Under the pieces are notes generated by a model, which worked only from the letters and a program-made list of their open reading frames with translations, made no database searches and was not told the origin of the DNA. A stretch of 64,000 nucleotides of DNA from IMG/VR virus record IMGVR_UViG_3300045988_062257; one strand, given 5' to 3'. This document shows positions 14,147 to 30,506 of the stretch, piece after piece. Source of the DNA: a virus. Position 1 is the stretch's first letter. Each line of letters opens with the position of its first letter. The translations under genes and the position numbers were made by a program.

Positions 14147-14458
14147 ATGAAATTGTGGATTGATGATTTGCGGCCAGCACCGAAAGGATATATCTGGGTT
14201 AAAAGCGTAAAAGCCGCTAAGACCGCGATCTGGCAGTATGAACATAACATGACAGATGACAATATCTTGATTGACCTTGATCATGATGCTGGTGACTATG
14301 TATCTAAAGGTGGGGACTATATCAAGGTACTCGATTGGCTAGAAGCTAAAGGTATTGTAGATACTGGATATAGCTTTCATATACATAGTATGAATCCTGT
14401 CGGCGTCCAGAATATGAGAGTAATCATTGAGAAGAATGGATGGAGGGAAATTAGATAA
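14147..14458 (+). CDS. Hypothetical protein
   Basis: RBS AAGAAGG before the ATG. Confidence 0.45.
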   Translation: MKLWIDDLRPAPKGYIWVKSVKAAKTAIWQYEHNMTDDNILIDLDHDAGDYVSKGGDYIKVLDWLEAKGIVDTGYSFHIHSMNPVGVQNMRVIIEKNGWREIR

Positions 14459-14634
14459 TGGTTAAGACTTGGGCACAACTATATGACAGACTGGGGCGAC
14501 AACCATTGTCTAAAACAAAAGAGTCACGTATCGTTCTCAAAAATGAGGATGGAACTTTCACGCCTTTAATGCTCGTATTTGATGCTAACGGAGCAAATTG
14601 GTGGCTTGAGAAAAGAAAGGATGGAAAAGATTAA
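14458..14634 (+). CDS. Hypothetical small protein (58 aa)
   Basis: ATG overlaps the previous stop (TAATG). Below the ORF-table length cutoff. Confidence 0.3.
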   Translation: MVKTWAQLYDRLGRQPLSKTKESRIVLKNEDGTFTPLMLVFDANGANWWLEKRKDGKD

Positions 14635-14865
14635 ATGGGTAAGTTTTCAGAGCTTAATCTAAAGTGGTATGAAGAGGAAGATTTAGAAGACCTTGAGGGA
14701 GAATATCCGGGTCTTTTCGATAAGTCAAGAGAGGAACTAGATAAATTCGCTACTGCGTTATACTGGAAAGCACAGAACCTAATTGAGGAAGCAAATAGCC
14801 TTGAGAGTAAGGCTGATGTTATTCGAACCTATCTGGATGCGACAGAAAGAGAGGAAGTGTTGTAA
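14635..14865 (+). CDS. Hypothetical acidic protein
   Basis: Start coupled to the previous stop. Confidence 0.4.
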   Translation: MGKFSELNLKWYEEEDLEDLEGEYPGLFDKSREELDKFATALYWKAQNLIEEANSLESKADVIRTYLDATEREEVL

Positions 14866-14867
14866 TA

Positions 14868-15170
14868 ATGGGAAAAATTACTCGTCATAGCAAAGAGCGC
14901 ATTGTTCAGAGAACTGAGGGATGTGAGAGTTTCGCAGAAGCTAAGAAGTTGGCTAAACAAGCTAAGCGATCTGGCGCGACTATCAATCAGTTCCAGAAGT
15001 TCCCTAAGTTCTTCTCGTATCTTCAGAACAAAAGAGATCAGACCAATACCTGCTCTATTAGAGTGTACCGAGGTAACATTTATATCTGGCGTGGCAAAGA
15101 TACACTAATTACCGCACACCCTATCCCCGAAAGATATATTAAAGAAATGGAGGCTATTGGTGATGACTGA
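14868..15170 (+). CDS. Hypothetical basic protein
   Basis: Start 2 nt after the previous stop. Confidence 0.4.
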   Translation: MGKITRHSKERIVQRTEGCESFAEAKKLAKQAKRSGATINQFQKFPKFFSYLQNKRDQTNTCSIRVYRGNIYIWRGKDTLITAHPIPERYIKEMEAIGDD

Positions 15171-15960
15171 TGTTATGAGTAGAGTTTATGGCCATCTCGA
15201 TGAAAGTTTACAGAGATTCGACGAATCCAGAATCGTCGGTATCTTCCTGCAAGGTTCTCAGAACTATGGTCTTGAAACTCCTAAGAGTGATGTTGATACA
15301 AAGCTGATTGTTACTCCTACTTTTGATGAAGTAGTTCTCAACAAGAAACCTATCAGCACCACTCATGTAAGAGCAAATAACGAGCATACTGACTTAAAGG
15401 ATATTCGTTTAATGCTCGCCACCTTTCGCAAGCAAAACCTTAACTTCATCGAAATTCTGTTTACCCCTTATGCTTGGGTAAACCCTCTCTTTGAAAGTGA
15501 ATGGAGCCGCCTGACTACGGCGCGCGAAAAGATTGCCCATTATTCTCCATATAGCGCAGTTAAAACTATGAAGGGTATCGCTATGGAGAAGTATCATGCC
15601 ATGGAACACGAGTATCCTAGCAAGTTGGAAGTATTGGCTGAATATGGATACGACCCAAAACAGCTTCATCATCTCCTGCGAGTCCAGGAATACATCCATA
15701 GATACATCAGCGGTGAATCTTATGAAGCGTGCTTGCATCCTAAGCATCCAGAGTTTCTCGTGGCTGTTAAGCAGGGATACTTTAACCTTGAACAGGCTCG
15801 CACTTCCGCAGATGCAGCGATTGCTGATGTAATTAAAACTGCGGATGCTTTCTGCGAAAAGGTTGGTAAAACTTTTGATACCGCAGTTGATGAACTGCTG
15901 GATGACGTACAGTACAATATCGTAAAAAGTGCATTGAAAGGAGAGATTCTAAATGATTAA
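15157..15960 (+). CDS. Nucleotidyltransferase (Pol-beta superfamily)
   Basis: GS-x9-DxD-like motif LQGSQNYGLETPKSDVDTK. Confidence 0.45.
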   Translation: MVMTDVMSRVYGHLDESLQRFDESRIVGIFLQGSQNYGLETPKSDVDTKLIVTPTFDEVVLNKKPISTTHVRANNEHTDLKDIRLMLATFRKQNLNFIEILFTPYAWVNPLFESEWSRLTTAREKIAHYSPYSAVKTMKGIAMEKYHAMEHEYPSKLEVLAEYGYDPKQLHHLLRVQEYIHRYISGESYEACLHPKHPEFLVAVKQGYFNLEQARTSADAAIADVIKTADAFCEKVGKTFDTAVDELLDDVQYNIVKSALKGEILND

Positions 15961-16747
15961 GAACTGGCTTGTTACAGGAGACACTCATGGTCAAGTCCTT
16001 GAAAGACTTAGTCATATTGGATATTCTCCTGATGAAACTGCATTGATTATTCTTGGCGATATGGGGCTTAATTTCTATCTGAATAAGACCGATCGCAAGA
16101 ATAAAAAGAATGTTAATAATACAGGCTTCCGCATTTACGCGGTTCGCGGAAACCATGAAGAGCGTCCAGAAAACCTTTCCATGGAGCAAATGTATGACGA
16201 AGACGTCGATGGCGGCGTCTATTATGAGCCAGAATTTCCGAATATCAGATACCTTTTTGATGGAGAGAGCTACAACATTCATGACTACTCTGTCCTTGTT
16301 ATCGGCGGGGCATATTCCGTAGATAAGTGGTATCGACTTGGAGGCCGTCCAGAAGATACAAATAGCTGGACCGGTTGGTTCAAGGACGAACAGCTAACCA
16401 AAAAGGAAATGGATGAAATTGGCGCATGGGTTGAAGGTAAGCGTTATGATTTTGTCCTAACCCATACTTGTCCCATTTCTTGGGAGCCAAGAGATTTGTT
16501 TCTCTCTGGTCTTGACCAATCAAAAGTAGATAAGAGTATGGAACTTTGGCTTGAGGATATCAAAAGCAAAGTTGATTGGGAAGTATGGCTCTGCGGCCAC
16601 TACCATGACGATCGGTTAATCCGACCTGGCGCAGAAATGTATTTCCATGACATTGAATCTCTTGATACAATTTGGGAGCGCTGGCAAGACCCTGAGAACA
16701 TCGACTGGTGGTTGAAGAAGGATCCAAACTACTATATGGGTAGATAA
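15953..16747 (+). CDS. Calcineurin-like metallophosphoesterase
   Basis: Motifs GDTHG, GDMG, GNHE, and HYHDD-like C-terminal His. Confidence 0.55.
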   Translation: MIKNWLVTGDTHGQVLERLSHIGYSPDETALIILGDMGLNFYLNKTDRKNKKNVNNTGFRIYAVRGNHEERPENLSMEQMYDEDVDGGVYYEPEFPNIRYLFDGESYNIHDYSVLVIGGAYSVDKWYRLGGRPEDTNSWTGWFKDEQLTKKEMDEIGAWVEGKRYDFVLTHTCPISWEPRDLFLSGLDQSKVDKSMELWLEDIKSKVDWEVWLCGHYHDDRLIRPGAEMYFHDIESLDTIWERWQDPENIDWWLKKDPNYYMGR

Positions 16748-16795
16748 AAAAATAAAGGGTCGAAGTATTAAATACTTCGACCCTTTTTAATTAAA
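16748..16795. terminator. Bidirectional Rho-independent terminator (AAAGGGTCGAAGTATT-taaa-TACTTCGACCCTTT)
   Basis: Perfect palindrome flanked by A-run on one side and T-run on the other. Separates converging + and - strand genes. Confidence 0.65.
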
Positions 16796-17048
16796 AATCA
16801 TGCCATTCAATTTTCTGCGGACTTCCAGTTCCACCGATCTTTTGATAGCCATTTGCTGCGGTATATTGCAAGATGGCATCTTCTACAAAGTAGATTTTGC
16901 CTTCTTCGCCTACCGCAGGAAGCTCAGAACGCTGTGTTACTTCAATGCTTCCACCATTTTTAATCTGTTCCTTAACCCATTCTTTGAGTTTTGTATCATA
17001 ATGAGACAAAAGGTTAAGGTCAATAAGATTTTCTAATGCAACTGCCAT
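16791..17048 (-). CDS. Hypothetical protein (minus strand)
   Basis: RBS AAGGAGTG upstream on the minus strand. Converges on the bidirectional terminator. Confidence 0.45.
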   Translation of the reverse strand: MAVALENLIDLNLLSHYDTKLKEWVKEQIKNGGSIEVTQRSELPAVGEEGKIYFVEDAILQYTAANGYQKIGGTGSPQKIEWHDF

Positions 17049-17061
17049 TAGGAATCACTCC

Positions 17062-17331
17062 TTAACCAAATAATTTATCAATGTCTGCAATGTCGGCTAA
17101 GCTGCCTTCAACGACAACTGTCCCACCGCCTCCGCCGCCACTTGACTTTTGTTTAATCCATTGACCCTGGTTGTTCAATCTATAAATGCTAGAAGTTGCG
17201 ACAACCTCGCAAGTGCTGCCAGGGGTAAAGTGGGTAGGAAGGGTGGCAATTTCGTCTTCGGTATCAACTAGTAGACGAACTAGATAGGGAGTGATTTTCT
17301 CCCCACTCATCATCTGAGAATACATAGACAA
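17062..17331 (-). CDS. Hypothetical Gly-rich protein (minus strand)
   Basis: Co-oriented with 16791-17048. Contains a GGGGGG run. Confidence 0.4.
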   Translation of the reverse strand: MSMYSQMMSGEKITPYLVRLLVDTEDEIATLPTHFTPGSTCEVVATSSIYRLNNQGQWIKQKSSGGGGGGTVVVEGSLADIADIDKLFG

Positions 17332-17419
17332 TCTGCCCCTTTCATTATTTTCTCTATTGTTATCTAAAAAATGATAATGAGTGTATATCAGCTTTTGGCC
17401 AAAATAAATACCTATTTGA

Positions 17420-17471
17420 AAAATATCATAAAATATATTATAATATATATAGAAAGTTAAGGAAGAAAGAA
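17420..17471 (+). promoter_or_regulatory. Promoter motif plus leader (TATATTATAATATATATAGAAAGTTAAGGAAG)
   Basis: Instance of the repeated motif before the gene at 17472. Confidence 0.4.
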
Positions 17472-17876
17472 GTGATAACCATTCGTATCTGGCACCAAAA
17501 ACTTATTCCCTATCTTGATCGTCAGCGTCTCTTGGGTCAGCATCGAGAATGCGCGGCTCTAAGAGGAAAAGGTTGGGGCAAGAAGCACGCAACTGTAGAC
17601 TACGCTTTTACACATGACCCTGCTCTACTTGTCGCTTATCATTATCTGATTATGGACGAGATGGAGAAGCGTGGTTACCATCCAGATAAGATTTGGAAGA
17701 ATCCTAACTGGCGAGGAAGTACATTAGGTGAGGGTACATGGATTTCTGATTCTAAGTATGAAGAGATTTATGAATCTGCTAAGCAGGGTAATATGATTTA
17801 CCCTGAACACGACGATGCTTATTTGCAGGAGTGTATCAATATTCTGCATGAAAAAGGTGTCGACATTACGATGTAA
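17472..17876 (+). CDS. Pyrimidine-dimer DNA glycosylase-like (T4 endonuclease V family?)
   Basis: N-terminal pattern IRIWHQKLIPYLDRQRLLGQHRECAAL resembles the endoV N-terminus (L..L.DQHL..EYRE). Non-ATG start in the ORF table. Confidence 0.35.
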   Translation: MITIRIWHQKLIPYLDRQRLLGQHRECAALRGKGWGKKHATVDYAFTHDPALLVAYHYLIMDEMEKRGYHPDKIWKNPNWRGSTLGEGTWISDSKYEEIYESAKQGNMIYPEHDDAYLQECINILHEKGVDITM

Positions 17877-17896
17877 CAAGAGAGGAGATAACTATA

Positions 17897-18066
17897 TGAT
17901 GCCCTATGTTTGTGATGGAACTATCGTAAGAGTGAGAGACGGTCGCACTGGTAAAGTCATCTGCGTTGATAGAAACACCAAGATTGCAGTAGTCTATACT
18001 GGTAAGGCATCTATCTCCACAAAGATTGAAAATCTTGAGGTCATTTCCTACAAGGAGGTTAAGTAA
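17897..18066 (+). CDS. Hypothetical small protein
   Basis: RBS AGAGGAG before ATG 17897. Listed within ORF 17815-18066. Confidence 0.35.
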
Positions 18067-18123
18067 ATGCCCGGAAGAGTAAGAGTTCATCGCCCTTCTC
18101 CCGAAAGAGAGGGAGAATATAAG

Positions 18124-18360
18124 ATGCGTATTCTTAGCATCTTGAATGAGTCCGAGGAAGCCATGACGATTGATGAAATCAAAAGCCAAGATATGATTCT
18201 TCAGCCGTTGACTTCTCAGAAAATGGCAAGACTTATCGGCAATCTGATTGAAATGGGACTTGTGCGGAAGGGCAAGTCTAAGAGCCTTGGACGCATGGTT
18301 TATAAGGCTGTAGCAGTCATGATTAGTCAAGGCTACGATGTGAATGAAGAGGAGGAATAA
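18124..18360 (+). CDS. Winged-helix-like small protein
   Basis: RBS GAGAGGGAG before ATG 18124 (ORF table starts upstream at 18067). C-terminal wHTH-like pattern. Confidence 0.35.
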   Translation: MRILSILNESEEAMTIDEIKSQDMILQPLTSQKMARLIGNLIEMGLVRKGKSKSLGRMVYKAVAVMISQGYDVNEEEE

Positions 18361-18363
18361 GAT

Positions 18364-19632
18364 ATGGCATATTTTGGTTTGGTAACTAAGTTGCAGAACT
18401 GCCGTAAGGACGAGAACTCTGATCGTCTGTATCTGGCAGATTGCTTCAATGAGGGCGTTATCGTCGGCCCCGATATGAAGACCGGTGATCTGGTTCTGTA
18501 CCTGCCGACCGATGGTCAGGTAGATCATTGGTTTGGCGATAAGTTTACCTTGTTCCGTAAGAATGAGGATGGTACTGAGCAGGGCGGTTATCTGGAGAAT
18601 AACGGTCATGTGCGGGCTATCAAGCTTCGTGGCAACGAGAGTTCTGGCATCGTCATCTCTCTTGAGCGTGTCTATGAGACTTTCGGCAATCAGCATTGGA
18701 AGAACGGAGATAAGATAAATACTATCAATGGTAAGGAGTTCTGCCGTAAGTATATCCCTAAGCGTAAGACTCCGAGCACCACTCCTAAGACTTCCTACAA
18801 GGGTCGTAAGGCAGAGGGTATTACCTATCCTGAGTTTGCAATGCATACTGACACCGAGCAGCTTGCATACAATCTGGATAAGTTCCGTCCCGGCGATGAG
18901 CTGAATATGACTCTTAAGATGCATGGCACTTCTCAGCGTTCCATGAACACCTTTGCTGAGCTACCCAATGGCTTCTTCCGTCGTCTATTCCATATGAAGA
19001 AGCGTCTGAAGCAGGCTTATGTTCTCGGTACGCGCCGTTGTGTTGTAACTGAGAACTCTCAGGGCTACTACGGCAATGATCTATTCCGTATGTCTCACCA
19101 TGAGGCATTGAAACCCCATCTTGATCCTGGTATGGAGGTCTTTTACGAGGTAGTAGGGTACTACGGTCCCTCTGAGAATGATACCATCATGCCTATCGGC
19201 GATAACTCCAAGCTAAAAGATAAGGCTTTCCAAAAGCTGTTCGGTAAAAAGTCTATCTTCTCCTACGGCTGCAAGCCCGGTGAGTCCCATATGTGGATTT
19301 ATCGCATCACTTCCGAGAATGGTCAGCGTGAGTGGACTCCTGACGAGATTACTGCTTGGTGCGAGAAGCATGGCTTTAATCGTGTCCCGGTGATTGAGAA
19401 CTTCAAGTTCACTACTGCCGAGGACCTGCAGGACCGCATTAACAAGTATTTCGAGGACTTGGTCGATCCTATCGGTAAAACTCATGTTAAAGAGGGCGTT
19501 GTAGTTCGTATCGTCAACCGCCGCGCCTTTACTGCTTTCAAGTCTAAGACTTACGAGTTCAAGGTGCTTGAGGGTATTATCAAAGAGACTGAGACTGCTC
19601 CAGATATGGAGGAGGCACAGGACGAAGTATGA
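18364..19632 (+). CDS. ATP-dependent RNA ligase, Rnl2-like
   Basis: Nucleotidyltransferase motif I KMHGTS (Rnl2 KIHGTN-like), motif IV EGVVVR, motif V FKSK. Confidence 0.5.
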   Translation: MAYFGLVTKLQNCRKDENSDRLYLADCFNEGVIVGPDMKTGDLVLYLPTDGQVDHWFGDKFTLFRKNEDGTEQGGYLENNGHVRAIKLRGNESSGIVISLERVYETFGNQHWKNGDKINTINGKEFCRKYIPKRKTPSTTPKTSYKGRKAEGITYPEFAMHTDTEQLAYNLDKFRPGDELNMTLKMHGTSQRSMNTFAELPNGFFRRLFHMKKRLKQAYVLGTRRCVVTENSQGYYGNDLFRMSHHEALKPHLDPGMEVFYEVVGYYGPSENDTIMPIGDNSKLKDKAFQKLFGKKSIFSYGCKPGESHMWIYRITSENGQREWTPDEITAWCEKHGFNRVPVIENFKFTTAEDLQDRINKYFEDLVDPIGKTHVKEGVVVRIVNRRAFTAFKSKTYEFKVLEGIIKETETAPDMEEAQDEV

Positions 19633-20156: not shown

Positions 20157-20198
20157 CAAGAGACTCTTACCTAGCCAGTAAGAGTCTCTTTATTTTTA
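20157..20198 (+). terminator. Rho-independent terminator (CAAGAGACTCTTAC-ctagcca-GTAAGAGTCTCTT plus T-run)
   Basis: 13-bp stem and TTATTTTTAT. Followed by the promoter motif. Confidence 0.65.
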
Positions 20199-20251: not shown

Positions 20252-20776
20252 ATGCAGAAAATTCTAATTGTAATTGATATGCAGAATGATTTCGTAACAG
20301 GGCCTCTCGGCTCTAAAGCCGCGCAAGTAGCTGCGAAGAATATTGCTGCGCATATCAATGAATATGACACGGTAATTTTCACCCGCGATACCCATGGCCC
20401 AGATTATCTGGATACATTGGAAGGAAAGTTCCTACCGATTCCGCATTGTATCAAGGATACTGAAGGATGGGAGATTATCCCTGAACTCGTTAATGGAGTT
20501 TCCAAGGTGAAGAATCTCTACGTCGTCGATAAGGATACCTTTGGCACTTTCATTTGGGGAAGTATGTCTGTAAATATGTCAGTAGATGAAGATACTACCA
20601 TTGAAATTTGCGGCGTATGCACCGACATTTGTGTGGTATCCAATGCTCTTATCATGCGGGCTTTTCGTCCTAATCAGAAGATCAAGTGTCACAAAGACTG
20701 GTGCGCTGGTACGAGTGTTGCAGCACATGAAGCAGCTCTTAAAGTTATGGAATCTTGCCAGATTGAAGTTATTTAA
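20252..20776 (+). CDS. Isochorismatase-family hydrolase (nicotinamidase PncA-like)
   Basis: N-terminal ILIVIDMQNDF and catalytic Cys region CGVCTDICV. Confidence 0.55.
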   Translation: MQKILIVIDMQNDFVTGPLGSKAAQVAAKNIAAHINEYDTVIFTRDTHGPDYLDTLEGKFLPIPHCIKDTEGWEIIPELVNGVSKVKNLYVVDKDTFGTFIWGSMSVNMSVDEDTTIEICGVCTDICVVSNALIMRAFRPNQKIKCHKDWCAGTSVAAHEAALKVMESCQIEVI

Positions 20777-20787
20777 GGAGGCTTAAT

Positions 20788-21621
20788 ATGCTATTTGTTC
20801 GCTCTAGAATGGGTTTTGAGGATAAAACCTGGATGCCAGTTAGTCAAGATCGATTTCCAGATGGAACGCTGCACATGACTGCTCCTAAAGATTCCTTATT
20901 TAAGAACTCTAATGTCGATATCTACTGGAAGTATAACAATGATGCAGAATTGTTCTCGCTAATTTGCTTGCGGAAACACTATGCCGATTGTAAAAATGTC
21001 ACACTTTATATGCCCTATTGTCCGCACGCCCGCATGGATAGAGTTAAGGGCACAACCGATGTATTCACTCTCAAGAGTTTTGCAGATGTTATCAACTCTC
21101 TTGATTTCACCAAGGTGGTTATCTATGATGCCCATAGTAATGTAACACCTGCGCTAATTGATAGAGTGGAAAATCGTCCGAATACTATGTTCGTTGAACG
21201 CACTTTACTCGATATCGGAGACGATAATCTTGTCATGTATTATCCCGACGAAGGGGCTATGAAGAGATATTCTGAGAATTGCCAGCGCCCTTATAGCTTT
21301 GGCATGAAGCGCAGAAATTGGGAGACTGGTAAAATTCTCGGTGTAGATATTATCAATAGAGAGATTGTAAAAGACAAGAATATCCTCATTGTTGATGATA
21401 TTTGTTCTAAGGGCGGTACATTCTACCATTCAGCGCAGGCTCTGAAAGATGCGGGCGCCGCAGATATTTATCTCTTCATCACTCATTGCGAAGATTCTAT
21501 TTTCAAAGGCAGCTTACTCGAAAGTGGCTTGATTAAGCACATCTACACCACTGATTCGTTGGGCCATGACATTCTCTTTAACAAACAGATTACGGTTTAC
21601 AACCTGCGAGAAATCATTTAA
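20788..21621 (+). CDS. PRPP-synthetase-like phosphoribosyl pyrophosphokinase (Prs or ADPR-PP synthetase-like)
   Basis: PRPP-binding signature ILIVDDICSKGGT. About 277 aa. Sits next to a NAMPT-family gene. Confidence 0.5.
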   Translation: MLFVRSRMGFEDKTWMPVSQDRFPDGTLHMTAPKDSLFKNSNVDIYWKYNNDAELFSLICLRKHYADCKNVTLYMPYCPHARMDRVKGTTDVFTLKSFADVINSLDFTKVVIYDAHSNVTPALIDRVENRPNTMFVERTLLDIGDDNLVMYYPDEGAMKRYSENCQRPYSFGMKRRNWETGKILGVDIINREIVKDKNILIVDDICSKGGTFYHSAQALKDAGAADIYLFITHCEDSIFKGSLLESGLIKHIYTTDSLGHDILFNKQITVYNLREII

Positions 21622-21630
21622 GGAAAGGAA

Positions 21631-23361
21631 TTGTATACAATGTTTAATCCTCTTTTAATGATTGACTTTTATAAGAGTACCCATCATGAACAGTACCCCG
21701 TTGGACTAACTAAGATGGTTAGCTACTACACTCCTCGTATGAGCCGCCTTAAGGATGTAGACAAGGTAACTTTGTTTGGTCTACAGGCATTTATTAAGGA
21801 GTATCTCATTGAGGGTTTTAACGATAACTTCTTTAATCGTCCAGAAGAGGAAGTTGTCGCAGAGTACGAGCGAGTTCTCAACGCTACTCTCGGTCCAGGT
21901 GCATTTCAGTCTGAGAAAATTAGAGATTTGCATCGACTGGGCTATCTTCCTCTAGAAATCTCTGCTGTCCCTGAAGGCACCAGAACCGCGATCGGCGTCC
22001 CGCAGATCGAGATTACCAACACTCACCCCAACTTCGTTTGGTTGGTGAATACTATTGAGACCCTTCTGTCTGCCACCATGTGGCATACGCAGGTATCCGC
22101 GGAAGTTGGCTATCGGTATCGCCAGATTGTGCAGAAATACCGTGACATGAGTTGCGACGACAATGTTCCTGTAGCTCGACTGCTTGGTGATTTCTCTATG
22201 CGCGGTCAGCAATCCGCGGAATCCGCAATTAAGAGTTCTGCTGGCTGGTGTCTATCTTTCCTGAACACCGCTACTGTACCTGCAATTATGTGGCTTGAGA
22301 AGAACTATAATTGCGACTGCACTAAGGAACCTGTTGCTTACGGCGCAATCTCTACCGAGCATAGTGTTATGTGCTCTAACTACGCGATTGATGGTAATGA
22401 AATTACCCACATCCGCAGACTTCTGACAGAGATTTATCCTCACCACAATTTTTCTATGGTGTCTGATAGTTACGACTATTGGAATCTCGTAGAGAAAATT
22501 CTCCCGCACTTGAAAAATGAAATCATGGCACATGATGGGTGTCTTTCTATTCGTGGCGATAGTGGCGACCCAGTTGAGATTATCGCGGGTAAGGAAATCA
22601 TCTATCTCAATGAGCAGGAGTGGGAGAACCTAAAAGACGATCCAAGTGAGTTCATTGCTGAGTTCTTTGAACGAGACTTAGAGAAAGACACTCAGCAGAT
22701 TTTCTCTTACAATGGAGAGTATGCTCTTGCTGACATTACAGTCGAATGGACTAATGAGCGCGGTGCTTGGACTGATTGCAAATATTGGTACATTGAGGGT
22801 TATAATGTCAAACTGATTGAAAATTATGAGCTTACTTCTGAGGATAAGGGAACTGTCTGGTGTTTGTGGGATATTTTCGGTGGAACTATCAATAGCAAGG
22901 GCTATAAGGTCCTTGATCCTCACATTAAAGCTATCTATGGTGATAGCATTACTCCTCAGCGGTGCACTCGCATTTATCAGCGCCTTGTGAATAATGGATT
23001 TGCCATTAACAATGTTTCTCTTGGCGTTGGCTCTTTCTCCTTTATGTGTCTTGAAGAAGATGGCAGCTTCAATCCTTACACTCGTGATACCTTTGGTATC
23101 GCTGTTAAGGCAACTTACGCGGAAAATGCAAATGGTAAGCCTATTATGATTTACAAGCAGCCCAAGGCTCTCAGTTGGAAGAAGTCTCAGAAAGGCTGCT
23201 GTCGGATAGCTCTTGATGGTCAGAGCTATGAAGATGAACTGACTTGGGCAGATCATCTTGGTGAAGACAATCTACTCCAGCCTGTGTTCCGTGATGGTAG
23301 TATGATTAAGGAGGACAGTCTGCACGATATTCGCGCACGGCTATATAAGGAGGGCTTTTAA
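21631..23361 (+). CDS. Nicotinamide phosphoribosyltransferase family protein (NadV/NAMPT-like)
   Basis: 576 aa. NAMPT/NAPRT-family architecture with conserved GDS and DSYD-like motifs. Confidence 0.55.
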   Translation: MYTMFNPLLMIDFYKSTHHEQYPVGLTKMVSYYTPRMSRLKDVDKVTLFGLQAFIKEYLIEGFNDNFFNRPEEEVVAEYERVLNATLGPGAFQSEKIRDLHRLGYLPLEISAVPEGTRTAIGVPQIEITNTHPNFVWLVNTIETLLSATMWHTQVSAEVGYRYRQIVQKYRDMSCDDNVPVARLLGDFSMRGQQSAESAIKSSAGWCLSFLNTATVPAIMWLEKNYNCDCTKEPVAYGAISTEHSVMCSNYAIDGNEITHIRRLLTEIYPHHNFSMVSDSYDYWNLVEKILPHLKNEIMAHDGCLSIRGDSGDPVEIIAGKEIIYLNEQEWENLKDDPSEFIAEFFERDLEKDTQQIFSYNGEYALADITVEWTNERGAWTDCKYWYIEGYNVKLIENYELTSEDKGTVWCLWDIFGGTINSKGYKVLDPHIKAIYGDSITPQRCTRIYQRLVNNGFAINNVSLGVGSFSFMCLEEDGSFNPYTRDTFGIAVKATYAENANGKPIMIYKQPKALSWKKSQKGCCRIALDGQSYEDELTWADHLGEDNLLQPVFRDGSMIKEDSLHDIRARLYKEGF

Positions 23362-23786
23362 TGAACGATCCATTCCTTGACATCAATAGAGTAGTTGATA
23401 GACTCTATAATGAATATAAGCGGTATGGTGATATTATTATCGCCTTCGACTTTGATTACACGGTTCATAATTTCCGTGACGAAGATTATACTTACGAGTG
23501 TGTGAGTGAAATGTTGCGGAAATGGCAACCCTATGCTAAGCTCGTGGTATTTAGTGCTTCTCAAGAAGAGCGATATCCCTATATTGCAGATTATCTCAAT
23601 CAGAATAACATTCCTTTTGATGCAATCAATGAGGATGTTCTGACTGAAAAACGTAAGCCAACGAGAAAACTGTATTATAATATCTTGCTTGATGATAGAG
23701 CAGGACTTGGTAGCGCTTACACGGCATTAGATATGCTATATAGTAAACTAGAAGCAGAAGGAGAACTGAAAACATGGAGAATGTAA
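23361..23786 (+). CDS. HAD-like hydrolase (possible nucleotidase)
   Basis: DxDxT motif FDFDYTV near the N-terminus. Confidence 0.35.
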   Translation: MNDPFLDINRVVDRLYNEYKRYGDIIIAFDFDYTVHNFRDEDYTYECVSEMLRKWQPYAKLVVFSASQEERYPYIADYLNQNNIPFDAINEDVLTEKRKPTRKLYYNILLDDRAGLGSAYTALDMLYSKLEAEGELKTWRM

Positions 23787-24514
23787 TTACCAATATCACC
23801 AATTGGATTAAGGATTACTTCGTAAATAATGGTCCAGATTGCAAAGCTATCATTGGTATTTCTGGTGGCAAAGATAGCACTGTAACTGCGGCTCTGCTTG
23901 TTAAAGCACTCGGAAAGAATAGGGTTATTGGTGTAAAAATGCCACAGGGCAATCAGCATGACATTAATGTTGCCAATAAAGTAATTGACTATCTCGGTAT
24001 ACGGAGTTACGAAATCAATATTGGCGATGTCTGTGAATCCTTATATCATGCTATTGATGAGGGGTATGATTTTGATAGTACAGTTAAAAACAATCCCCAA
24101 GTTACTTCTAACTCTCCTGCCCGCGTCCGCATGACAGTGCTTTATGCTATTGCTGCGCTTGAACATGGTAGAGTAGCAAACACTTGTAATAGGAGCGAGG
24201 ATTTTATTGGCTATTCCACTAAATTCGGAGACGCTGCTGGCGATTTCTCCGTGCTGTCTGAATATACAGTTTCAGAAGTGCGGCAGATTGGTAAAGCACT
24301 TGGTATCCCTAATGAGTTTATCTTTAAAGCGCCAGAAGACGGTCTTAGTGGCAAGACAGATGAAGATAATCTTGGATTTACCTATGGTGAACTCGATCAC
24401 TTCCTACTGCGAGGACATTATCCATCTTATGATGTTTATAAAAACATTGAAGAGCGGCACAAGCGCAATCTTCATAAGATAAATCCAATGCCTTCTTGTC
24501 CTAGATATTACTAA
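23774..24514 (+). CDS. nadE: NH3-dependent NAD+ synthetase
   Basis: PP-loop GISGGKDST plus NadE-like length and motif arrangement. Confidence 0.6.
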   Translation: MENVITNITNWIKDYFVNNGPDCKAIIGISGGKDSTVTAALLVKALGKNRVIGVKMPQGNQHDINVANKVIDYLGIRSYEINIGDVCESLYHAIDEGYDFDSTVKNNPQVTSNSPARVRMTVLYAIAALEHGRVANTCNRSEDFIGYSTKFGDAAGDFSVLSEYTVSEVRQIGKALGIPNEFIFKAPEDGLSGKTDEDNLGFTYGELDHFLLRGHYPSYDVYKNIEERHKRNLHKINPMPSCPRYY

Positions 24515-24534
24515 ACTCGCAATTACACTGTTAT

Positions 24535-24566
24535 AAAGAGAGCCTTACGGCTCTCTTTATTTTTTA
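24535..24566 (+). terminator. Rho-independent terminator (AAGAGAGCC-ttac-GGCTCTCTT plus T-run)
   Basis: Stem-loop plus TATTTTTTAT, then the promoter motif. Confidence 0.6.
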
Positions 24567-25006: not shown

Positions 25007-25750
25007 ATGGCTACATATGCGTGCTCTGATTTGCACGGTAGATTGGATCTACTGAAGCAGATTCAGGATTTCTTACAACCCGATGATACGGTTTATTTTC
25101 TCGGCGATGCCGGAGATAGAGGTCCAAATCCTTGGGAGACTATCAAGGCAGTTGCTCAAGATAAGCGTTTTATCTATCTTAAAGGCAACCATGAAGATAT
25201 GCTGGTAAAAGCCATGGAAGATGAAGTGCGGAGAGAAGGATGCGGAGTACTTGGGAAAAACTTTGCTTTACTTTCTCAAAATGGGGGTGGAGAAACTTTC
25301 CTTGACTGGCTTTTAGAACCAATGAAAACTGGCTGGTGGAATTATCTCAAGAAACTACCAATCTATAAGAAATATGTAAATGAACAGGGAATCACTATTC
25401 ATCTCTGTCATGCTGGCTTTAATCCAATGCAGGATGATGCTATCCCTAATGACGACGATTTACTTTGGGATAGATGCCATTGGCACTCTAAGGAGCCTAT
25501 TTTTGGTGATAAAGAAATTTGCGTGCACGGCCATACTCCTATTCCATATCTGTTAAAACGAAATAACTGGAGCGATGAAATTCCAGATTGGGATGGTGGA
25601 GCTTGGTGGTATGCACAAGACCACAAAGTTGATTTGGATTGTGCAAGTTGGTATACTGGTTATACTGTATTGTTAGACTTAGACAGCTTTGATGAACATA
25701 TCTTTAATGCTGCCGACGCAATTGACCTTTCTAAGAAGGAGGAATGGTGA
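25007..25750 (+). CDS. Calcineurin-like metallophosphoesterase (Ser/Thr phosphatase-like)
   Basis: Motifs SDLHGR, GDAGDRG, GNHE. Confidence 0.55.
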   Translation: MATYACSDLHGRLDLLKQIQDFLQPDDTVYFLGDAGDRGPNPWETIKAVAQDKRFIYLKGNHEDMLVKAMEDEVRREGCGVLGKNFALLSQNGGGETFLDWLLEPMKTGWWNYLKKLPIYKKYVNEQGITIHLCHAGFNPMQDDAIPNDDDLLWDRCHWHSKEPIFGDKEICVHGHTPIPYLLKRNNWSDEIPDWDGGAWWYAQDHKVDLDCASWYTGYTVLLDLDSFDEHIFNAADAIDLSKKEEW

Positions 25751-26475
25751 TGATTCCCGGACTGTATAAAGTCTTTAACGAAAGATGGAATGGACAGACA
25801 ACTTGGGTATATTCAGATCCTCATTTTGGTGATAAAGAACTCGCCGCTGGAACTCCAGATCGTCCTTCCGATGAAGAGCAGGTTAAACTTATCAATAGCA
25901 AAGTTGGTAAGAAAGATGTTCTGATTATCTTGGGAGACTGCGGCGACCCGGCTATGTGCGCTAAACTTCGTGGTTATAAGGTACTTATTATGGGGAACCA
26001 TGACGCCGGCCGCAGTAATTATGAGCGCAAAAAGATTTCTCGCAAGTTCCCCAAAGAAGTCTTTCAAAAATCTGAGGCTCTTGATGAAATGAAACGCGTC
26101 TACCCCGGTTGTCAGTATTCTATTACCGAGGGGTATGACTTCCATTCCCCTTTTGAGTATTGGGAAGTCTTTGCGGACAATAATCTATTTGACGAGATCT
26201 ATGAGGGACCTCTCATGATTGGGGAAAAACTCATTCTCTCCCATGAGCCTCTTCCTATGATGCCTTGGGTGTTTAATATTCATGGTCATGTCCATGATCG
26301 TCGTCACAAAAATGATGACAGACATCTAAATGTTTGCTCTGACGCAATTAACTACAGCCCAGTCAATCTAAATAAGTTGATGAAGAATGGGCTTACCTCA
26401 AAAATCTACTCTGTACATCGACAGACTATTGATGTAGCTACGAAAAAGAAGGAAAAGAGGAAACGCAATGGATAA
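25744..26475 (+). CDS. Calcineurin-like metallophosphoesterase (second, adjacent)
   Basis: Motifs SDPHFGD, GDCGD, GNHD, HGHVH. Confidence 0.5.
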   Translation: MVMIPGLYKVFNERWNGQTTWVYSDPHFGDKELAAGTPDRPSDEEQVKLINSKVGKKDVLIILGDCGDPAMCAKLRGYKVLIMGNHDAGRSNYERKKISRKFPKEVFQKSEALDEMKRVYPGCQYSITEGYDFHSPFEYWEVFADNNLFDEIYEGPLMIGEKLILSHEPLPMMPWVFNIHGHVHDRRHKNDDRHLNVCSDAINYSPVNLNKLMKNGLTSKIYSVHRQTIDVATKKKEKRKRNG

Positions 26476-26749
26476 TCTTATGGATTTAATATTTGGTATT
26501 GTTTACAACAATCACGATTCCGATCTCATTGGGCGCGATCAGGTTGATGATTATACTATTGACACTTGTCTGACCGCAGACCAAGGTTATGAAACCGCGG
26601 TTTGGCGAGGAAACCATAATATGGTTATTGTGGCACGTTATGCCACTAGAGAAGAAGCTGTATTGGGGCATTATGAGTGGGTTGATAGATGTAAAAGTCA
26701 TCCTCGTTCTGCCTATAGCGTTCAGTTTGAGTGCGATGTTTTATTTTAA
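26468..26749 (+). CDS. Hypothetical protein
   Basis: Start overlaps the previous stop. Confidence 0.4.
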   Translation: MDNLMDLIFGIVYNNHDSDLIGRDQVDDYTIDTCLTADQGYETAVWRGNHNMVIVARYATREEAVLGHYEWVDRCKSHPRSAYSVQFECDVLF

Positions 26750-26767
26750 TATAAGGAGTTTATTATT

Positions 26768-27031
26768 ATGATGGATGATTTTCTGGCTATTCTGGGAGCT
26801 ATTGCTTTGATAATCGCAACAGTACTCGTTCTTCCCTTTATCTCTTTTTGGCTGTGCTATTTCGGAGGATGGGTGGCTTCTATTACCATTGGTAATATTC
26901 TCACTGATGGTCTAAATACTTTGTTCCAGACAACTTGGTTTACCAAGGATATGATTCCACTTTGCGCCGGTACGCTCGGTTGGATTGGTAGCTATTTTAG
27001 GACCAGTAATCTCGGAAAGAGCAAGGATTAA
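26768..27031 (+). CDS. Small membrane protein
   Basis: Two TM helices. Confidence 0.4.
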   Translation: MMDDFLAILGAIALIIATVLVLPFISFWLCYFGGWVASITIGNILTDGLNTLFQTTWFTKDMIPLCAGTLGWIGSYFRTSNLGKSKD

Positions 27032-27037
27032 AAGAAG

Positions 27038-27073
27038 AATCAAGGGAGTAAAAAGCTCCCTTGATTTTTTTAT
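27038..27073 (+). terminator. Rho-independent terminator (AATCAAGGGAG-taaaaa-GCTCCCTTGATT plus T-run)
   Basis: Stem-loop and T7. The promoter motif follows. Confidence 0.65.
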
Positions 27074-27111
27074 TATTTTATTATATAATATATGTATAAG
27101 AAAGGAGAAGA

Positions 27112-27948
27112 TTGAAAATGCCTATTCATGATGAACTTGGAACTCGGATGAAAGAGTTCTATGAAAGCGTTCCTAAGACTAAGTTAATGCGCCGTACCCC
27201 AGTTGCAATTCGCATTGACGGTAAAGCTTTCCACACCTTTACCCGTGGTTTCAGTAAGCCTTTTGACGATGTGCTGATTAGTGCGATGCAGGATACCATG
27301 AAATATCTCTGTGAAAACATTCAAGGGTGCGTATTAGGGTATACCCAAAGTGATGAAATCACTCTTATCCTTGTTGATTACAAGCGGCTCAACAGCTCTG
27401 CTTGGTTTGATTATGAAGTGCAGAAGATGTGTTCTATTGCCGCTTCTATGGCGACGATGGCTTTCAACAAAGCATTTAATGAAGGAGTTCGGCATAGGAA
27501 TCTAGATTATTATGCCGCTCATGCGACTATGGATAACCCTTACCCACAAGATGATTTGGGCCAGACTTATGCAGTAAAAGCACAAATGGGCGCCATGTTT
27601 GATGCTCGTTGTTTCAATATCCCCAAGGAAGAGGTCACCAACCTTGTCTATTGGCGTCAGCTAGATGCAACCCGCAATTCTATTCAGATGGTAGGTCAGG
27701 CTAATTTCTCTCACAAAGAACTCCAAGGTAAATCTTGTGAGAAAATCAAAGAGATGTTAATCACGGAGAAAGGGATTTCTTGGGAAGACTTTCATCCTAT
27801 GTATAAGCATGGCTCTTGTTGCATCAAGGTTACAACTGAGACCGATGGTGTAACTCGCTCTAGCTGGGAAATTGATAAAAATATTCCGCTATTTGTCGGA
27901 GAGGGACGTGAGTATATCGAATCTCTAATCCAATGTCAGGAGGAATAA
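27112..27948 (+). CDS. Thg1-like protein (tRNA-His guanylyltransferase family, 3'-5' polymerase)
   Basis: N-terminal RIDGKAFHTFTRG signature. About 278 aa. Confidence 0.5.
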   Translation: MKMPIHDELGTRMKEFYESVPKTKLMRRTPVAIRIDGKAFHTFTRGFSKPFDDVLISAMQDTMKYLCENIQGCVLGYTQSDEITLILVDYKRLNSSAWFDYEVQKMCSIAASMATMAFNKAFNEGVRHRNLDYYAAHATMDNPYPQDDLGQTYAVKAQMGAMFDARCFNIPKEEVTNLVYWRQLDATRNSIQMVGQANFSHKELQGKSCEKIKEMLITEKGISWEDFHPMYKHGSCCIKVTTETDGVTRSSWEIDKNIPLFVGEGREYIESLIQCQEE

Positions 27949-28430
27949 CAATGGCTGAATGGCAAAAAGGAACAGGATGGAAAGAATGGTTTGAAATTAC
28001 CGGCGCGGATGGAGTAGATTTCCACCCAATTGGTCAAGATCCGCGTAAAAACCCAGCCATTGTGTTGCAGTCTAATACCAAGGAAGATATTCTAGAAAGA
28101 AAAGTCGGCTATCCAAAGAGTAATTATTCATTTTGGAAAAAAATCAATGGCAAAAAATATTATATCTCTCTTGACAATCCAATTGAGGTAACTCATAAAG
28201 TTACTATAGATGCAGAAGTAGATTGGGTTACTGGTTATTTACGAGGCGGATATTACCATGGAGAACTTGAACTATCTGAGGAAGATTATAAAACTTTTAA
28301 GAAAGATCCATTAAATTTTTTAGAAAATCATATTGATTTATGGGTAGATTGGCCATTTGAAATAAACGATTGCGAGATTGAGGACATTGGTGAACTTTCA
28401 CAAGTCTATTTTACTGATCAAACTAATTAA
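27933..28430 (+). CDS. Hypothetical protein
   Basis: Overlaps upstream gene end. Confidence 0.4.
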   Translation: MSGGITMAEWQKGTGWKEWFEITGADGVDFHPIGQDPRKNPAIVLQSNTKEDILERKVGYPKSNYSFWKKINGKKYYISLDNPIEVTHKVTIDAEVDWVTGYLRGGYYHGELELSEEDYKTFKKDPLNFLENHIDLWVDWPFEINDCEIEDIGELSQVYFTDQTN

Positions 28431-28435
28431 ATAAA

Positions 28436-28477
28436 AATCAAAAGGTTCTAATTCTTAGAACCTTTTGATTTTTTTAT
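28436..28477 (+). terminator. Rho-independent terminator (AATCAAAAGGTTCTAA-ttc-TTAGAACCTTTTGATT plus T7)
   Basis: 16-bp stem and T-run. Confidence 0.65.
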
Positions 28478-28527
28478 AAATATATATTATAATATATATA
28501 GAAAGTTAAGAAAGGAAGTTATGAAGT
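28478..28527 (+). promoter_or_regulatory. Promoter motif plus leader (ATATATATTATAATATATATAGAAAGTTAAGAAAGGAAG), consensus-like copy
   Basis: Best match to the motif repeated about 17 times in the window. Confidence 0.45.
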
Positions 28528-28683
28528 ATGGTCACTAAAAATGACGCTGTTAAAGCGTTGGAAACCCTTGATGGTATTATTGATAGTCTGGATTGGAGCG
28601 GCGTATTCATTGATGACGAGCTAAATGACATTGAAAAATCAATGGCTATCATTCAGCAGTTTATTGAACAGGAGGAAAAGTAA
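28528..28683 (+). CDS. Hypothetical small acidic protein (51 aa)
   Basis: Follows the promoter/RBS motif. Below the ORF-table cutoff. Confidence 0.25.
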   Translation: MVTKNDAVKALETLDGIIDSLDWSGVFIDDELNDIEKSMAIIQQFIEQEEK

Positions 28684-28961
28684 TGACTCATTCGCATGGT
28701 ATGTTAGGTTATCACGATAGTCCAAGATGCAAGTCCGACCTTTGGTCTCCTGTCCCATGTTCTTGTGCTCAAGAGAATCGAGCTTTTTCTCCTTTTATAG
28801 AGCATCAGCAGGACCTTGAAGATGCTGTTAATTTGCTCATTGAAGCAAGAGTAAAAGGTGAGAACTGCTCTATTCAGTTTGAAACCGAGGTATCTGATGA
28901 AGATATTGCTTGGGTGATGGCTGAAGTTGAACGGAGGTTAGCTAATGCCAGAATACCTTGA
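28683..28961 (+). CDS. Hypothetical protein
   Basis: Start coupled to the previous stop. Confidence 0.4.
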   Translation: MTHSHGMLGYHDSPRCKSDLWSPVPCSCAQENRAFSPFIEHQQDLEDAVNLLIEARVKGENCSIQFETEVSDEDIAWVMAEVERRLANARIP

Positions 28962-29712
28962 CCGTGCTGTGGCTGTATCGCAAGCCAATTTCATACATGG
29001 TCATTGGGACGATGTGTACGTGAGTGCTGCTGCACTGATGGCAATACCAGCTGCAGATGTTATTCCAGTAACTCACAGTAAGTGGGATATTGAAGTTGGC
29101 ATGAATTATCATACGGAACGAATTTGTCCGGTATGTAAGAAAGTAATCAAGAGTAACTTCTGGGAGTATTGTTCACATTGTGGGGCAAAAATGGATGGAG
29201 GCGAAAAAATGACGACTGAACTGAAAGTAATGGTTGGCATCCCCGGTAGTGGTAAATCTACTTGGGTTAAGCAAGAGGTAGCTCGAATCGAGGAAGAACA
29301 TCGTACCACTTGTGTAGTTTCCAGAGATTTCGCGCGGCAGTCCATTTTGACCGATCGTGATAGCTACTTTGACAAAGAAGTTGAAGTATTCGACGAATTT
29401 GTCCGGCAGATTAACGAAGCTATGGAACTTGGTATTGATGTTGTGTTTGCGGATGCGACTCATATTAGCCCCGCTTCTCGTGCAAAGCTCCTTGGTCGGT
29501 TGATCGCAGATCCGCATACCAAATTGACCTTTGAAGTCATTGATGTCCCTGTTGAAACCGCTCTTGAGCGTAATGCTCAGCGGACTGGCGTTGCCAGAAT
29601 CCCCGATTCCGCAATTAAGAAGATGAAGAAGGGATTTTCTATTCCTACTGAAAAAGAGTTTCCTAAAACCAATTGGGGATTTTCTAATATCGAGGTGCGT
29701 GTGCATCATTAA
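28945..29712 (+). CDS. Polynucleotide-kinase-like P-loop kinase with N-terminal zinc ribbon
   Basis: CPVCKK...CSHCG zinc ribbon, then Walker A GIPGSGKST and PNK-kinase-like downstream region. Confidence 0.45.
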   Translation: MPEYLDRAVAVSQANFIHGHWDDVYVSAAALMAIPAADVIPVTHSKWDIEVGMNYHTERICPVCKKVIKSNFWEYCSHCGAKMDGGEKMTTELKVMVGIPGSGKSTWVKQEVARIEEEHRTTCVVSRDFARQSILTDRDSYFDKEVEVFDEFVRQINEAMELGIDVVFADATHISPASRAKLLGRLIADPHTKLTFEVIDVPVETALERNAQRTGVARIPDSAIKKMKKGFSIPTEKEFPKTNWGFSNIEVRVHH

Positions 29713-29801
29713 GAATAAGTTTTTCAATGACTATCAAAGATGAGGTCAGAAGTAATAAAAGAGTATGTAAGAATTTCCATTTATAAATGGAAGATGATAA
29801 A

Positions 29802-30506
29802 ATGTATTTCATTTATAAAATCGAAAATCTGATTAACCATAAAATCTATATTGGTTCCAGTGACTAGTCACGAGGATTTACAACAAGGTGGTATGAACAT
29901 TAGCAAAATGCTCGTCTCGAATCTCGCGCAGGATATGAATATCCATTATATCGAGCCATAAGAAAATATGGTATAGAGAATTTTGATTTTCAAATCTTAA
30001 TAAAAGATATTCAAACTCCAGAAGAAAGATATAAATTAGAGCATGATGCAATCATTGAATATAATAGCTTAACCTCTTAGCATGGATATAATCAAACTCT
30101 AAACACAGAATATCCGTTTGATGATCCAGAAGTACGAGCTAAATTGGCAACACCCATTTGTGCCATTTCAGAAACAAGTGGAGAAAAGAAATTTTTTCCT
30201 ACAATAACTGCCGCAGCTCATGAGTTAGGATCTGATAGAGCTAGTATTAGAAAATGCGCATCCGGTAGTACCAGATATAAAACAGTAAAGGGATTTATAT
30301 TTAGGGAATATAATCCAGAAACACTGGAAATCATTCCAAATAACATCCCCATAGAAGAAGCCAGCAAGTTAATTGAAATCAATGGAGAATTTCACAATTT
30401 CAAAGATTGGTGTTCCATTTATAATATTTCAAAAAATTCGGTATACAAGCGTATGAAAAATGGAATGTCGAGAATTGAAGCCATTACAACACCCAAAAGG
30501 AAGTGA
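29802..30506 (+). CDS. GIY-YIG homing endonuclease with NUMOD-like C-terminal DNA-binding domain; three in-frame TAG
   Basis: YFIYKIENLINHKIYIGSSD*SRGFTTRWYEH*QNAR (GIY...YIG...R..H) and C-terminal AAAHELGSDRASIRKC (NUMOD1-like). The ORF table lists only the C-terminal part (30144-30506), in frame with ATG 29802. Confidence 0.6.

Follow-up and report, generated by a model that had tools for sequence, protein, structure and literature searches.

The depletion of nicotinamide adenine dinucleotide (NAD+) is among the commonest strategies used by bacteria against phages, and, of the known phage answers to it, NARP1 is the most common. The NAD+ reconstitution pathways described in the literature include NARP1, in which the Namat transferase joins nicotinamide to ADP-ribose pyrophosphate (ADPR-PP) supplied by the Adps kinase, and NARP2, which combines Nampt and Nmnat as in Vibrio phage KVP40 (10.1101/2024.02.11.579819), as well as NARP1-AP (10.64898/2026.01.28.702374) and NARP3, which consists of PnuC and NadR (PMC13464706). 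The structure of Namat and the bacterial NARP1 have been described (PMC12774641), and the NARP1 operon of Bacillus phage FADO has been validated genetically (10.1101/2024.02.11.579819). Nicotinamidase, NadE, nicotinic acid and deamido-NAD (NaAD) are not mentioned in this context in these papers on NARP1, NARP2, NARP1-AP, NARP3 and Namat, and a literature search revealed no paper joining NARP1, Namat or ADPR-PP to NadE, NaAD or nicotinamidase. Here, a block of five genes (positions 20252-24514) is described in the virus record IMGVR_UViG_3300045988_062257 of IMG/VR, a stretch of 64,000 nucleotides that was analysed as a whole and is referred to below as the window. The block encodes a nicotinamidase, an Adps-like kinase, a Namat-family transferase, a HAD-type phosphatase and a NAD synthetase, and appears to represent a variant of NARP1 which may involve a new enzymatic reaction. 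The reading which we favour, as somewhat more likely than not, is that the five genes would rebuild NAD+ from the products of NAD+ cleavage via nicotinic acid and NaAD, in a deamidated version of NARP1.

As in NARP1, genes for an Adps-like kinase and a Namat-family transferase are adjacent in the window and occur in a phage setting, and the transferase possesses the catalytic His/Arg/Asp residues, the ribose-phosphate contacts and the R40/F392/TRD clamp. Unlike NARP1, the window transferase carries the substitutions D215A, A242S, H187G and Y396C and a nine-residue insertion in the clamp helix, and its predicted product is NaAD and not NAD+. A small phosphatase-type gene beside the transferase is shared with the NARP1-AP operons, and close relatives of the window operon have a Macro-domain gene in this slot, whereas the slot gene of the window encodes a capless BT0820-like HAD protein. 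The encoding of NAD+ restoration by a phage is common to NARP2 and NARP3 (PMC13464706), but no adenylyltransferase, NadR or PnuC was found in the 64-kb window and the transferase is far nearer to Namat than to Nampt; NARP3 was rejected as unrelated to the module. With the Preiss-Handler operon (PMC2330246) the module shares PncA at its entry, NadE at its exit and NaAD as the expected penultimate compound, as well as, in its bacterial sister lineage, a linkage to NrtR. PncB and NadD of that operon are, however, replaced by the Adps-like kinase and the Namat-family transferase, and the predicted ribosyl donor is ADPR-PP, which would bypass nicotinic acid mononucleotide (NaMN). Neither a PncB-type NAPRT nor NadD was found in the 64-kb window, and the transferase belongs to the NAMPT/Namat family.

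A first-pass annotation, made from the sequence alone, had called the five genes and regarded them as a phage module for the restoration of NAD+. All five open reading frames (ORFs) were verified on the + strand, and both the gene calls and the general idea were borne out. In order, they encode a PncA-type nicotinamidase of the cysteine hydrolases (20252..20776; 174 aa), an Adps-like pyrophosphokinase of the Prs superfamily (20788..21621; 277 aa), a Namat-family transferase (21631..23361; 576 aa), a capless, BT0820-like HAD-type phosphatase (23361..23786; 141 aa) and a single-domain, NH3-dependent NAD synthetase, NadE (23774..24514; 246 aa). Gaps of 11 and 9 nt separate the first three genes; the stop codon of the transferase overlaps the next start by 1 nt (TAATG), and the last two genes share 13 nt. 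The block is flanked directly on either side by a terminator-like hairpin on the + strand, and these two are the best of the region. The first (20158..20190; 13-bp stem and T-run) marks the end of the upstream unit and is followed by an AT-rich stretch with the ribosome-binding site (RBS) AAAGGAG before the first gene, while the second (24533..24560; 12-bp stem and TTTTTT), located 19 nt past the NadE stop codon, forms the downstream end. The five genes probably constitute one transcription unit. The TTG start of the transferase is doubtful, being only 2 nt away from the RBS; the latter (GGAAAGGA, 21621-21628) suits the ATG at 21640, which is the more probable start and would give a protein of 573 aa. 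Residue numbers for the window transferase nevertheless follow the 576-aa ORF. The same gene set was found in more than 150 loci of independent metagenomes, so that a chance juxtaposition of the five genes is excluded, and IMG/VR contains near-identical contigs as long as 144 kb (92-98% identity of the transferase protein). No match to the module was obtained with Megablast in 50,697 phage records, and the relatives came from protein-level searches.

The first-pass annotation had left two architectures open for the kinase and transferase pair, NadV/Prs and Adps/Namat, of which the latter is supported. The kinase matches phrog_619 (E 5e-72) but scores under every NCBIfam Prs cut-off, with the best solved Prs giving at most 51 bits. 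It can be aligned over its full length with the Adps of FADO (33% identity, 128 bits, E 4e-40; both 277 aa) and retains the KRR catalytic loop. A hidden Markov model (HMM) built solely from the Adps proteins of canonical NARP1 loci scored the kinase at 225 bits and the Prs of Escherichia coli, the one true Prs taken as outgroup, at 123 bits. On these comparisons, the kinase belongs with Adps and not with housekeeping Prs. The transferase comprises NAMPT_N and NAPRTase domains (NF006629, 438 bits) and is 46% identical to the Namat of FADO. Its bit scores are 407 with the SPbetaL1 Namat (9w5x/9w5w) and 338 with 9ke8, but 148 with the Nampt of Xanthomonas (Xcc) and about 130 with human NAMPT. As judged by these score differences, the pair is of the Adps/Namat (NARP1) lineage, and an identity as housekeeping Prs, Nampt or ordinary NAPRT is excluded. 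The grouping of the NAMPT-like protein with ordinary NAPRT and of the Prs-like protein with housekeeping Prs, for which a phylogenetic check had been proposed, was not seen.

An insertion of approximately 84 aa is present in the window transferase (residues ~322-405), between the IRGDSGDP strand and the LWDIFGG helix, and has no sequence match in the PDB. It is shared with some relatives that have the same type of pyridine pocket (e.g. L011) and with the canonical Namat proteins of Bacillus phages Kirov and Tsamsa, and is missing from FADO, SPbetaL1 and two further loci (L001 and L012). About two dozen representatives of the Namat family (P0125, P0138, P0161, P0170, P0206 and others) are 720-1114 aa in length and match in two to five separate stretches, which suggests inteins, homing-endonuclease insertions or fusions.

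The 21 ligand contacts in the structure of the SPbetaL1 Namat with NAD+ (PMC12774641) were mapped onto an alignment of the window transferase with 173 homologues, derived from two IMG/VR scans and phage records, and residue states were called from the alignment columns. Eighteen of the 21 contact residues are kept in the window transferase. In window numbering, these include the nicotinamide stackers Y14' and F188, together with D12' and R191, the catalytic residues H244, R308 and D310 (His245/Arg306/Asp308 in SPbetaL1), the ribose-phosphate contacts G437, D438, S439, G467 and S468, and the adenine-clamp residues R39', F469, T484', R485' and D486'. The residues common to the window and its clade are, in SPbetaL1 numbering, D13', Y15', R40', F189, R192, H245, R306, D308, G360-D361, G390-S391, F392 and T398-R399-D400, with R40 being Arg in 100% of the clade. 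The remaining three (Asp215, Ala242 and Tyr396) differ throughout the clade of the window transferase. The pyridine pocket is altered. Asp215 is replaced by Ala in 78/79 unique clade members (Ala214 in the window) and Ala242 by Ser in all 79 (Ser241 in the window), while Gly in place of His187, Asn in place of Gly213 and Gly in place of Pro307 further set the clade apart. Asp215 and Ala242 line the nicotinamide site of the SPbetaL1 Namat, where Asp215 hydrogen-bonds the nicotinamide amide (PMC12774641), and the equivalent Asp219 of the human enzyme likewise hydrogen-bonds the amide and sets the specificity for nicotinamide (PMC7096376, PMC12143786). In the SPbetaL1 Namat, the mutation D215A lowers the formation of NAD+ from nicotinamide 8.1-fold; the loss is 1.3-1.7-fold in single clamp mutants and 16.6-fold in the double mutant R40A/F392G (PMC12774641). 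Read from the alignment, the window transferase naturally bears a damaging pocket substitution, yet retains the most important clamp pair (R40/F392).

In a neighbour-joining tree, transferases with Ala or Ser at position 215 (Ala-type) are split from those with Asp or Glu (Asp-type) with a bootstrap value of 100/100. Removal of identical sequences left 153 unique homologues, of which 79 are Ala-type and 74 Asp-type. A NadE gene occurs within 6-7 kb in 78/79 of the former and 0/74 of the latter, and a PncA gene in 72/79 and 0/74, respectively, with the missing cases mostly on contigs that end early; NadE is thus missing from hardly any Ala-type module and PncA from few, and the canonical NARP1 loci of the sample have neither. 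The association of transferase type with NadE gave a Fisher p of ~1e-43, a value that stands for a single ancestral state kept since, and not for many separate events, as the two groups are divided by one 100/100 split. Two gene orders could be distinguished in the Ala-type clade, PncA-Adps-Namat-[HAD or Macro]-NadE and Adps-Namat-Macro-NadE-PncA, and in some relatives extra genes have been inserted, either after Namat (L046) or between it and Adps (L022). Identities within the clade (median 62%, minimum 35%) indicate that the gene set has been maintained over considerable divergence. The Adps proteins that belong to Ala-type loci are not united by one well-supported split (43/100), and no claim is therefore made that the kinase has diverged together with the transferase. 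A scan of one genome per prokaryotic species yielded 75 more Ala-type loci, mostly in metagenome-assembled genomes and isolates of gut Clostridia (Lachnospiraceae, Oscillospiraceae, Ruminococcus, Acetatifactor, Dysosmobacter), with NadE in 68/75 and PncA in 68/75, and four Asp-type loci, with NadE in 0/4 and PncA in 0/4. Furthermore, 1.84 billion cluster representatives were searched exhaustively with phmmer, which returned 1052 matches at E <= 1e-30. Of the best 150 of these, in which the pocket was read, 96 have H-D/E-A at positions 187/215/242 and about 52 have non-His/Ala-Ser-Val/Ser-Gly; mixed states did not occur. Four divergent representatives on usable contigs adjoin isochorismatase, Pribosyltran and/or NAD_synthase genes. 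Another divergent Ala-type locus (L261, on the contig of P0129; 183-8168) encodes an isochorismatase, a Pribosyltran protein, the transferase and a 131-aa protein, with no NadE within 5 kb; ABC-transporter genes and CinA, of the PncC-type nicotinamide mononucleotide (NMN) deamidase family, stand at its edge instead. The first-pass annotation had expected nicotinamide to be the substrate, with nicotinamidase, HAD protein and NadE as loose additions, but a distinct transferase clade without the amide-binding Asp, which co-occurs almost perfectly with NadE and PncA, points elsewhere.

Eleven Clostridium loci form a sister clade (bootstrap 100) with the order Adps-PncA-Namat-NadE, as in the chromosomal operon of C. 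intestinale DSM 6191 (L245, 4645-9135; also L181, L201, L215, L227, L233, L237, L242, L244, L247 and L254), whose NadE is 44% identical to that of the window. The pocket of this clade has Gly187, Ala215, Ser242 and Gly307, and its clamp is that of canonical Namat (GIGSYTYQYNTRD). The clamp that is specific for ADPR-PP is, by its sequence, intact in this lineage, and the presence of the pocket changes, a canonical clamp and PncA/NadE together indicates that the gene linkage tracks the pyridine pocket and not the clamp insertion. The C. intestinale operon lies between iscS/thiI and hisS, followed by an NrtR regulator (Nudix and winged-helix domains). ADP-ribose is the most effective anti-repressor of NrtR, and the classical clostridial NrtR operon, e.g. 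of Clostridium acetobutylicum, is nrtR-pncA-pncB-nadD-nadE (PMC2330246). The C. intestinale operon looks like such an operon in which pncB and nadD have been swapped for Adps and the transferase. Given this chromosomal, NrtR-linked and apparently housekeeping sister operon, the module is not a weapon of phages alone. The five genes are also found in the window order in phAss-1 (OQ749652), where they are labelled nicotinamidase, 'Prs', 'NAMPT', a 139-aa HAD-like protein and NadE; phAss-1 is a recoded gut phage, and its description lists the five genes without interpreting them (PMC10607447). Its transferase shares Ala215, Ser242 and Gly187 with the window but is only ~37% identical, has a canonical clamp helix and stems from a genome with code 15. 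The placement of phAss-1 is ambiguous, as it joins the Ala-type clade in 81/100 replicates, yet has a slightly higher identity to canonical Namat. Among the 50,697 phage records, none of a cultured phage contains an Ala-type transferase that is nearer than those of phAss-1 or MT835544, the latter an uncultured record.

The product of the first gene belongs to the isochorismatase family (PF00857, E 2e-22), and its best PDB matches are all nicotinamidases (5zn8, 1ilw/1im5, 3s2s, 3pl1 and 2h0r). Alignment with 5zn8 and the other nicotinamidases revealed that the catalytic triad is kept (D9, K93 and the Cys of GVCTDICV), as are the Asp/His/His metal ligands (D46/H48/H65). NadE has a single PP-loop synthetase domain (PF02540, E 2e-47; TIGR00552, 161 bits against a cut-off of 64). 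NaAD is its putative substrate, and NaMN a possible one. Genes for NadE are scarce in phage records, being present in 49/50,697. The product of the fourth gene has no Pfam match, a weak BT0820-HAD match being the only one in domain searches. It has 231 homologues, and in an alignment of 39 of these the HAD motifs are invariant, including DxDxT (D30, D32, T34), the S/T motif, K103 and D111-D112. The best Foldseek match of its AlphaFold2 model (pLDDT 91.3) is 2obb, the uncharacterised BT_0820 HAD phosphatase, followed by capless HAD phosphatases (SCP/CTD phosphatases, lipin and the phosphatase domains of Pnkp1 and T4 PNKP). The four motifs and the Rossmannoid fold of the model place the 141-aa protein in the HAD phosphatase superfamily. 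In relatives such as L001, the slot between the transferase and NadE is occupied by a Macro-domain gene (PF01661), and among the 79 unique Ala-type loci 51 have Macro only, 12 HAD only, one both and 15 neither. In 12 canonical NARP1 loci, a HAD-like gene also separates Adps from Namat, and four others have a Macro gene. A scan of 51 window ORFs revealed no Macro domain. The Macro-domain phosphatase Adpp of NARP1 operons converts ADPR-1''-phosphate, produced by the aRES defence, to ADP-ribose (10.64898/2026.01.28.702374). From its gene position, the HAD protein is tentatively considered a non-homologous substitute for Macro and a candidate ADPR-1''-phosphate phosphatase, a suggestion with the balance of probability slightly against it.

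From what is observed (the identities of the genes, their arrangement as an operon, the clade and residue states of the transferase, and the co-occurrence of the genes), the following pathway may be proposed, in which every substrate and product, as well as a role against host defence, is predicted from sequence. PncA would convert the nicotinamide released by NAD+ cleavage to nicotinic acid, while the Adps-like kinase would form ADPR-PP from ADP-ribose and ATP. The transferase would then join nicotinic acid and ADPR-PP to give NaAD directly, and NadE would convert NaAD, with ATP and NH3, to NAD+. The HAD-like phosphatase might trim phosphorylated ADP-ribose, e.g. ADPR-1''-phosphate from RES-type NAD+ phosphorylases, to ADP-ribose. 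The link to defence systems is carried over by analogy from NARP1. This nicotinate/NaAD route is the simplest scheme which employs all five genes without a host enzyme, and neither an NMN/NaMN adenylyltransferase (CTP_transf_like/NadM/NadR) nor Nudix or Macro domains were found in 46 other ORFs of the window. The route explains why NadE and PncA are found solely alongside the pocket that lacks the Asp, why the loss of the negative charge at position 215 and the added Ser241 would fit a carboxylate, and why the adenine contacts have been retained.

Several points weigh against this reading. The reactions given to the members of the Ala-type clade are inferred, and the substrate of the HAD protein is a guess from gene position. 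The Ala-type transferases are one clade (possibly with phAss-1), and their co-occurrence with NadE and PncA represents one or a few events maintained by selection and not many origins. There is no clear reason for the extra ATP cost to the phage and for its own PncA; a plausible host rationale is that Clostridia salvage via nicotinate and deamidate nicotinamide fast, such that a nicotinate route would be independent of the free nicotinamide pool. The solved NadE nearest to that of the window is 3fiu (114 bits), the NaMN-preferring NMN synthetase of Francisella, and a route via NaMN is thus possible. Tyr396, the second adenine-stacking residue, is replaced by Cys in 77/79 clade members (Cys473 in the window), and an insertion of 9-29 residues follows this position, before a conserved P[YF]TRD. 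The window clamp helix, GSFSFMC-LEEDGSFNPY-TRD, has kept the Phe at position 3 but has Cys at position 7 and nine inserted residues, and departs from the NARP1 signature GS-X-phi-X-phi-X-phi-TRD (aromatics at 3 and 7), which is intact in the Clostridium and phAss-1 lineages. Together, these changes could have weakened the preference of the window lineage for ADPR-PP. As a first alternative, to which these changes also lend weight, the module may boost the Preiss-Handler pathway, with the kinase making phosphoribosyl pyrophosphate (PRPP), the transferase forming NaMN from nicotinic acid and PRPP, host NadD producing NaAD and the phage NadE finishing the synthesis or, in a variant, with an NMN-synthetase-type NadE converting NaMN to NMN for a host NMN adenylyltransferase. 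The lost amide-binding Asp and the PncA/NadE linkage are equally consistent with this use of nicotinate, as the match of NadE to 3fiu would also be, the Clostridium sister operon is chromosomal and has NadD at hand, and the SPbetaL1 Namat is still able to use PRPP (PMC12774641). However, the kinase groups with Adps and not with Prs, no adenylyltransferase was found among the window ORFs scanned, and the strict retention of R40, F392 and T398/D400, together with the full clamp in Clostridium and phAss-1, would be pointless for a PRPP enzyme. Most relatives, moreover, have a Macro (Adpp-like) gene in the operon, which acts on derivatives of ADP-ribose (10.64898/2026.01.28.702374). Such a use of PRPP is considered unlikely.

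Alternatively, the transferase may make NAD+ from nicotinamide and ADPR-PP as in ordinary NARP1, with PncA and NadE as independent helpers of host salvage and the Asp-to-Ala change neutral or compensated. The protein clearly is of the Namat family and has an intact catalytic core, accessory genes do join NARP1 operons (10.64898/2026.01.28.702374), and the SPbetaL1 D215A mutant keeps ~12% of its activity, so that use of nicotinamide is possible (PMC12774641). Against a nicotinamide-using transferase stand the near-perfect, two-way character of the co-occurrence with NadE and PncA in the 153 unique sequences and in divergent lineages, with no Asp-type locus having NadE or PncA, and the shift of three pocket positions in concert. 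A phage nicotinamidase would furthermore destroy the substrate of such a Namat, and this explanation is more unlikely still. The least probable of the alternatives is that of a general auxiliary metabolic module, which would provide more NAD+ for phage replication in anaerobic Clostridia and be unrelated to NAD+-depleting defence. It agrees with the housekeeping context of the NrtR-linked sister operon in Clostridium and with the many nucleotide-metabolism genes of the phage (NrdD/G, ThyA, DHFR and guanylate kinase), but ADP-ribose is available only after NAD+ cleavage, Macro and HAD phosphatases fit an arms race with RES-type NAD+ phosphorylases, and canonical NARP1 is by experiment a counter-defence (10.1101/2024.02.11.579819). 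This last alternative concerns selective purpose and not chemistry, and is compatible with the NaAD pathway.

The Ala-type branch, previously unnoticed, comprises at least ~50 clusters at 50% identity and is abundant in human and animal gut viromes. The chances appear about even that its Namat homologue is a new nicotinate ADP-ribose transferase, forming NaAD from nicotinic acid and ADPR-PP and constituting with PncA, Adps, NadE and HAD/Macro a further NAD+ reconstitution pathway of many uncultured phages of gut Clostridia and, linked to NrtR, of Clostridium for the recycling of ADP-ribose. If this is true, NaAD would be formed without NaMN or NadD, in a reaction new to NAD metabolism, and there would be a reason why some phages carry a nicotinamidase and a NAD synthetase. 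The sensitivities and resistances of the pathway would be unlike those of NARP1, e.g. in its independence of free nicotinamide and its dependence on ammonia and extra ATP, and Clostridia would presumably recycle ADP-ribose by the nicotinate/NaAD route under NrtR control. The exchange of HAD for Macro would likewise point to a second, non-homologous phosphatase family in the arms race with RES-type NAD+ phosphorylases.

The other genes of the window are those of a large gut phage with an anaerobic Gram-positive host. They encode NrdD/NrdG (the anaerobic ribonucleotide reductase), gyrase, the alpha subunit of PolIII and an SLH-domain endolysin, along with 12 tRNAs. The NAD operon is surrounded by RNA-repair-like genes (14147-19632 and 25007-31073), encoding cREC_REC (14147-14458), an RlaP nucleotidyltransferase (15157-15960), four calcineurin-like phosphoesterases (at 15953, 25007, 25744 and 30513), an RNA ligase (18364-19632), a Thg1-like tRNA-His guanylyltransferase (27112-27948) and an AAA_33 kinase (28945-29712). 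A Thg1 gene is likewise located close to the NARP1 operon of FADO. The 12 tRNA genes lie in 363-9585, and include one for which ARAGORN gives a four-base anticodon (taaa; 4166-4239) and a tRNA-Cys with the anticodon ACA (363-432). They are followed by a DUF7788/DUF2828 protein (510 aa) and an AAA_5 (MoxR/dynein-type) ATPase (9738-13239). Downstream of the operon, an SPFH/flotillin-like protein (498 aa), a PIN and PhoH fusion (457 aa) and the endolysin, with Amidase_2 and S-layer-homology domains, are encoded in 31256-34921 and 35802-36389, the last of these proteins being consistent with a Clostridia-type host. A RecJ-like exonuclease appears to be split into two adjacent ORFs (52035-53690), one with DHH (135 aa) and one with DHHA1 and RecJ_OB domains (405 aa), for which a frameshift, a misassembly or a true division of the gene could account. 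Genes for HNH and I-HmuI-like homing endonucleases are scattered in the window (2675-3004 and 30144-30506).

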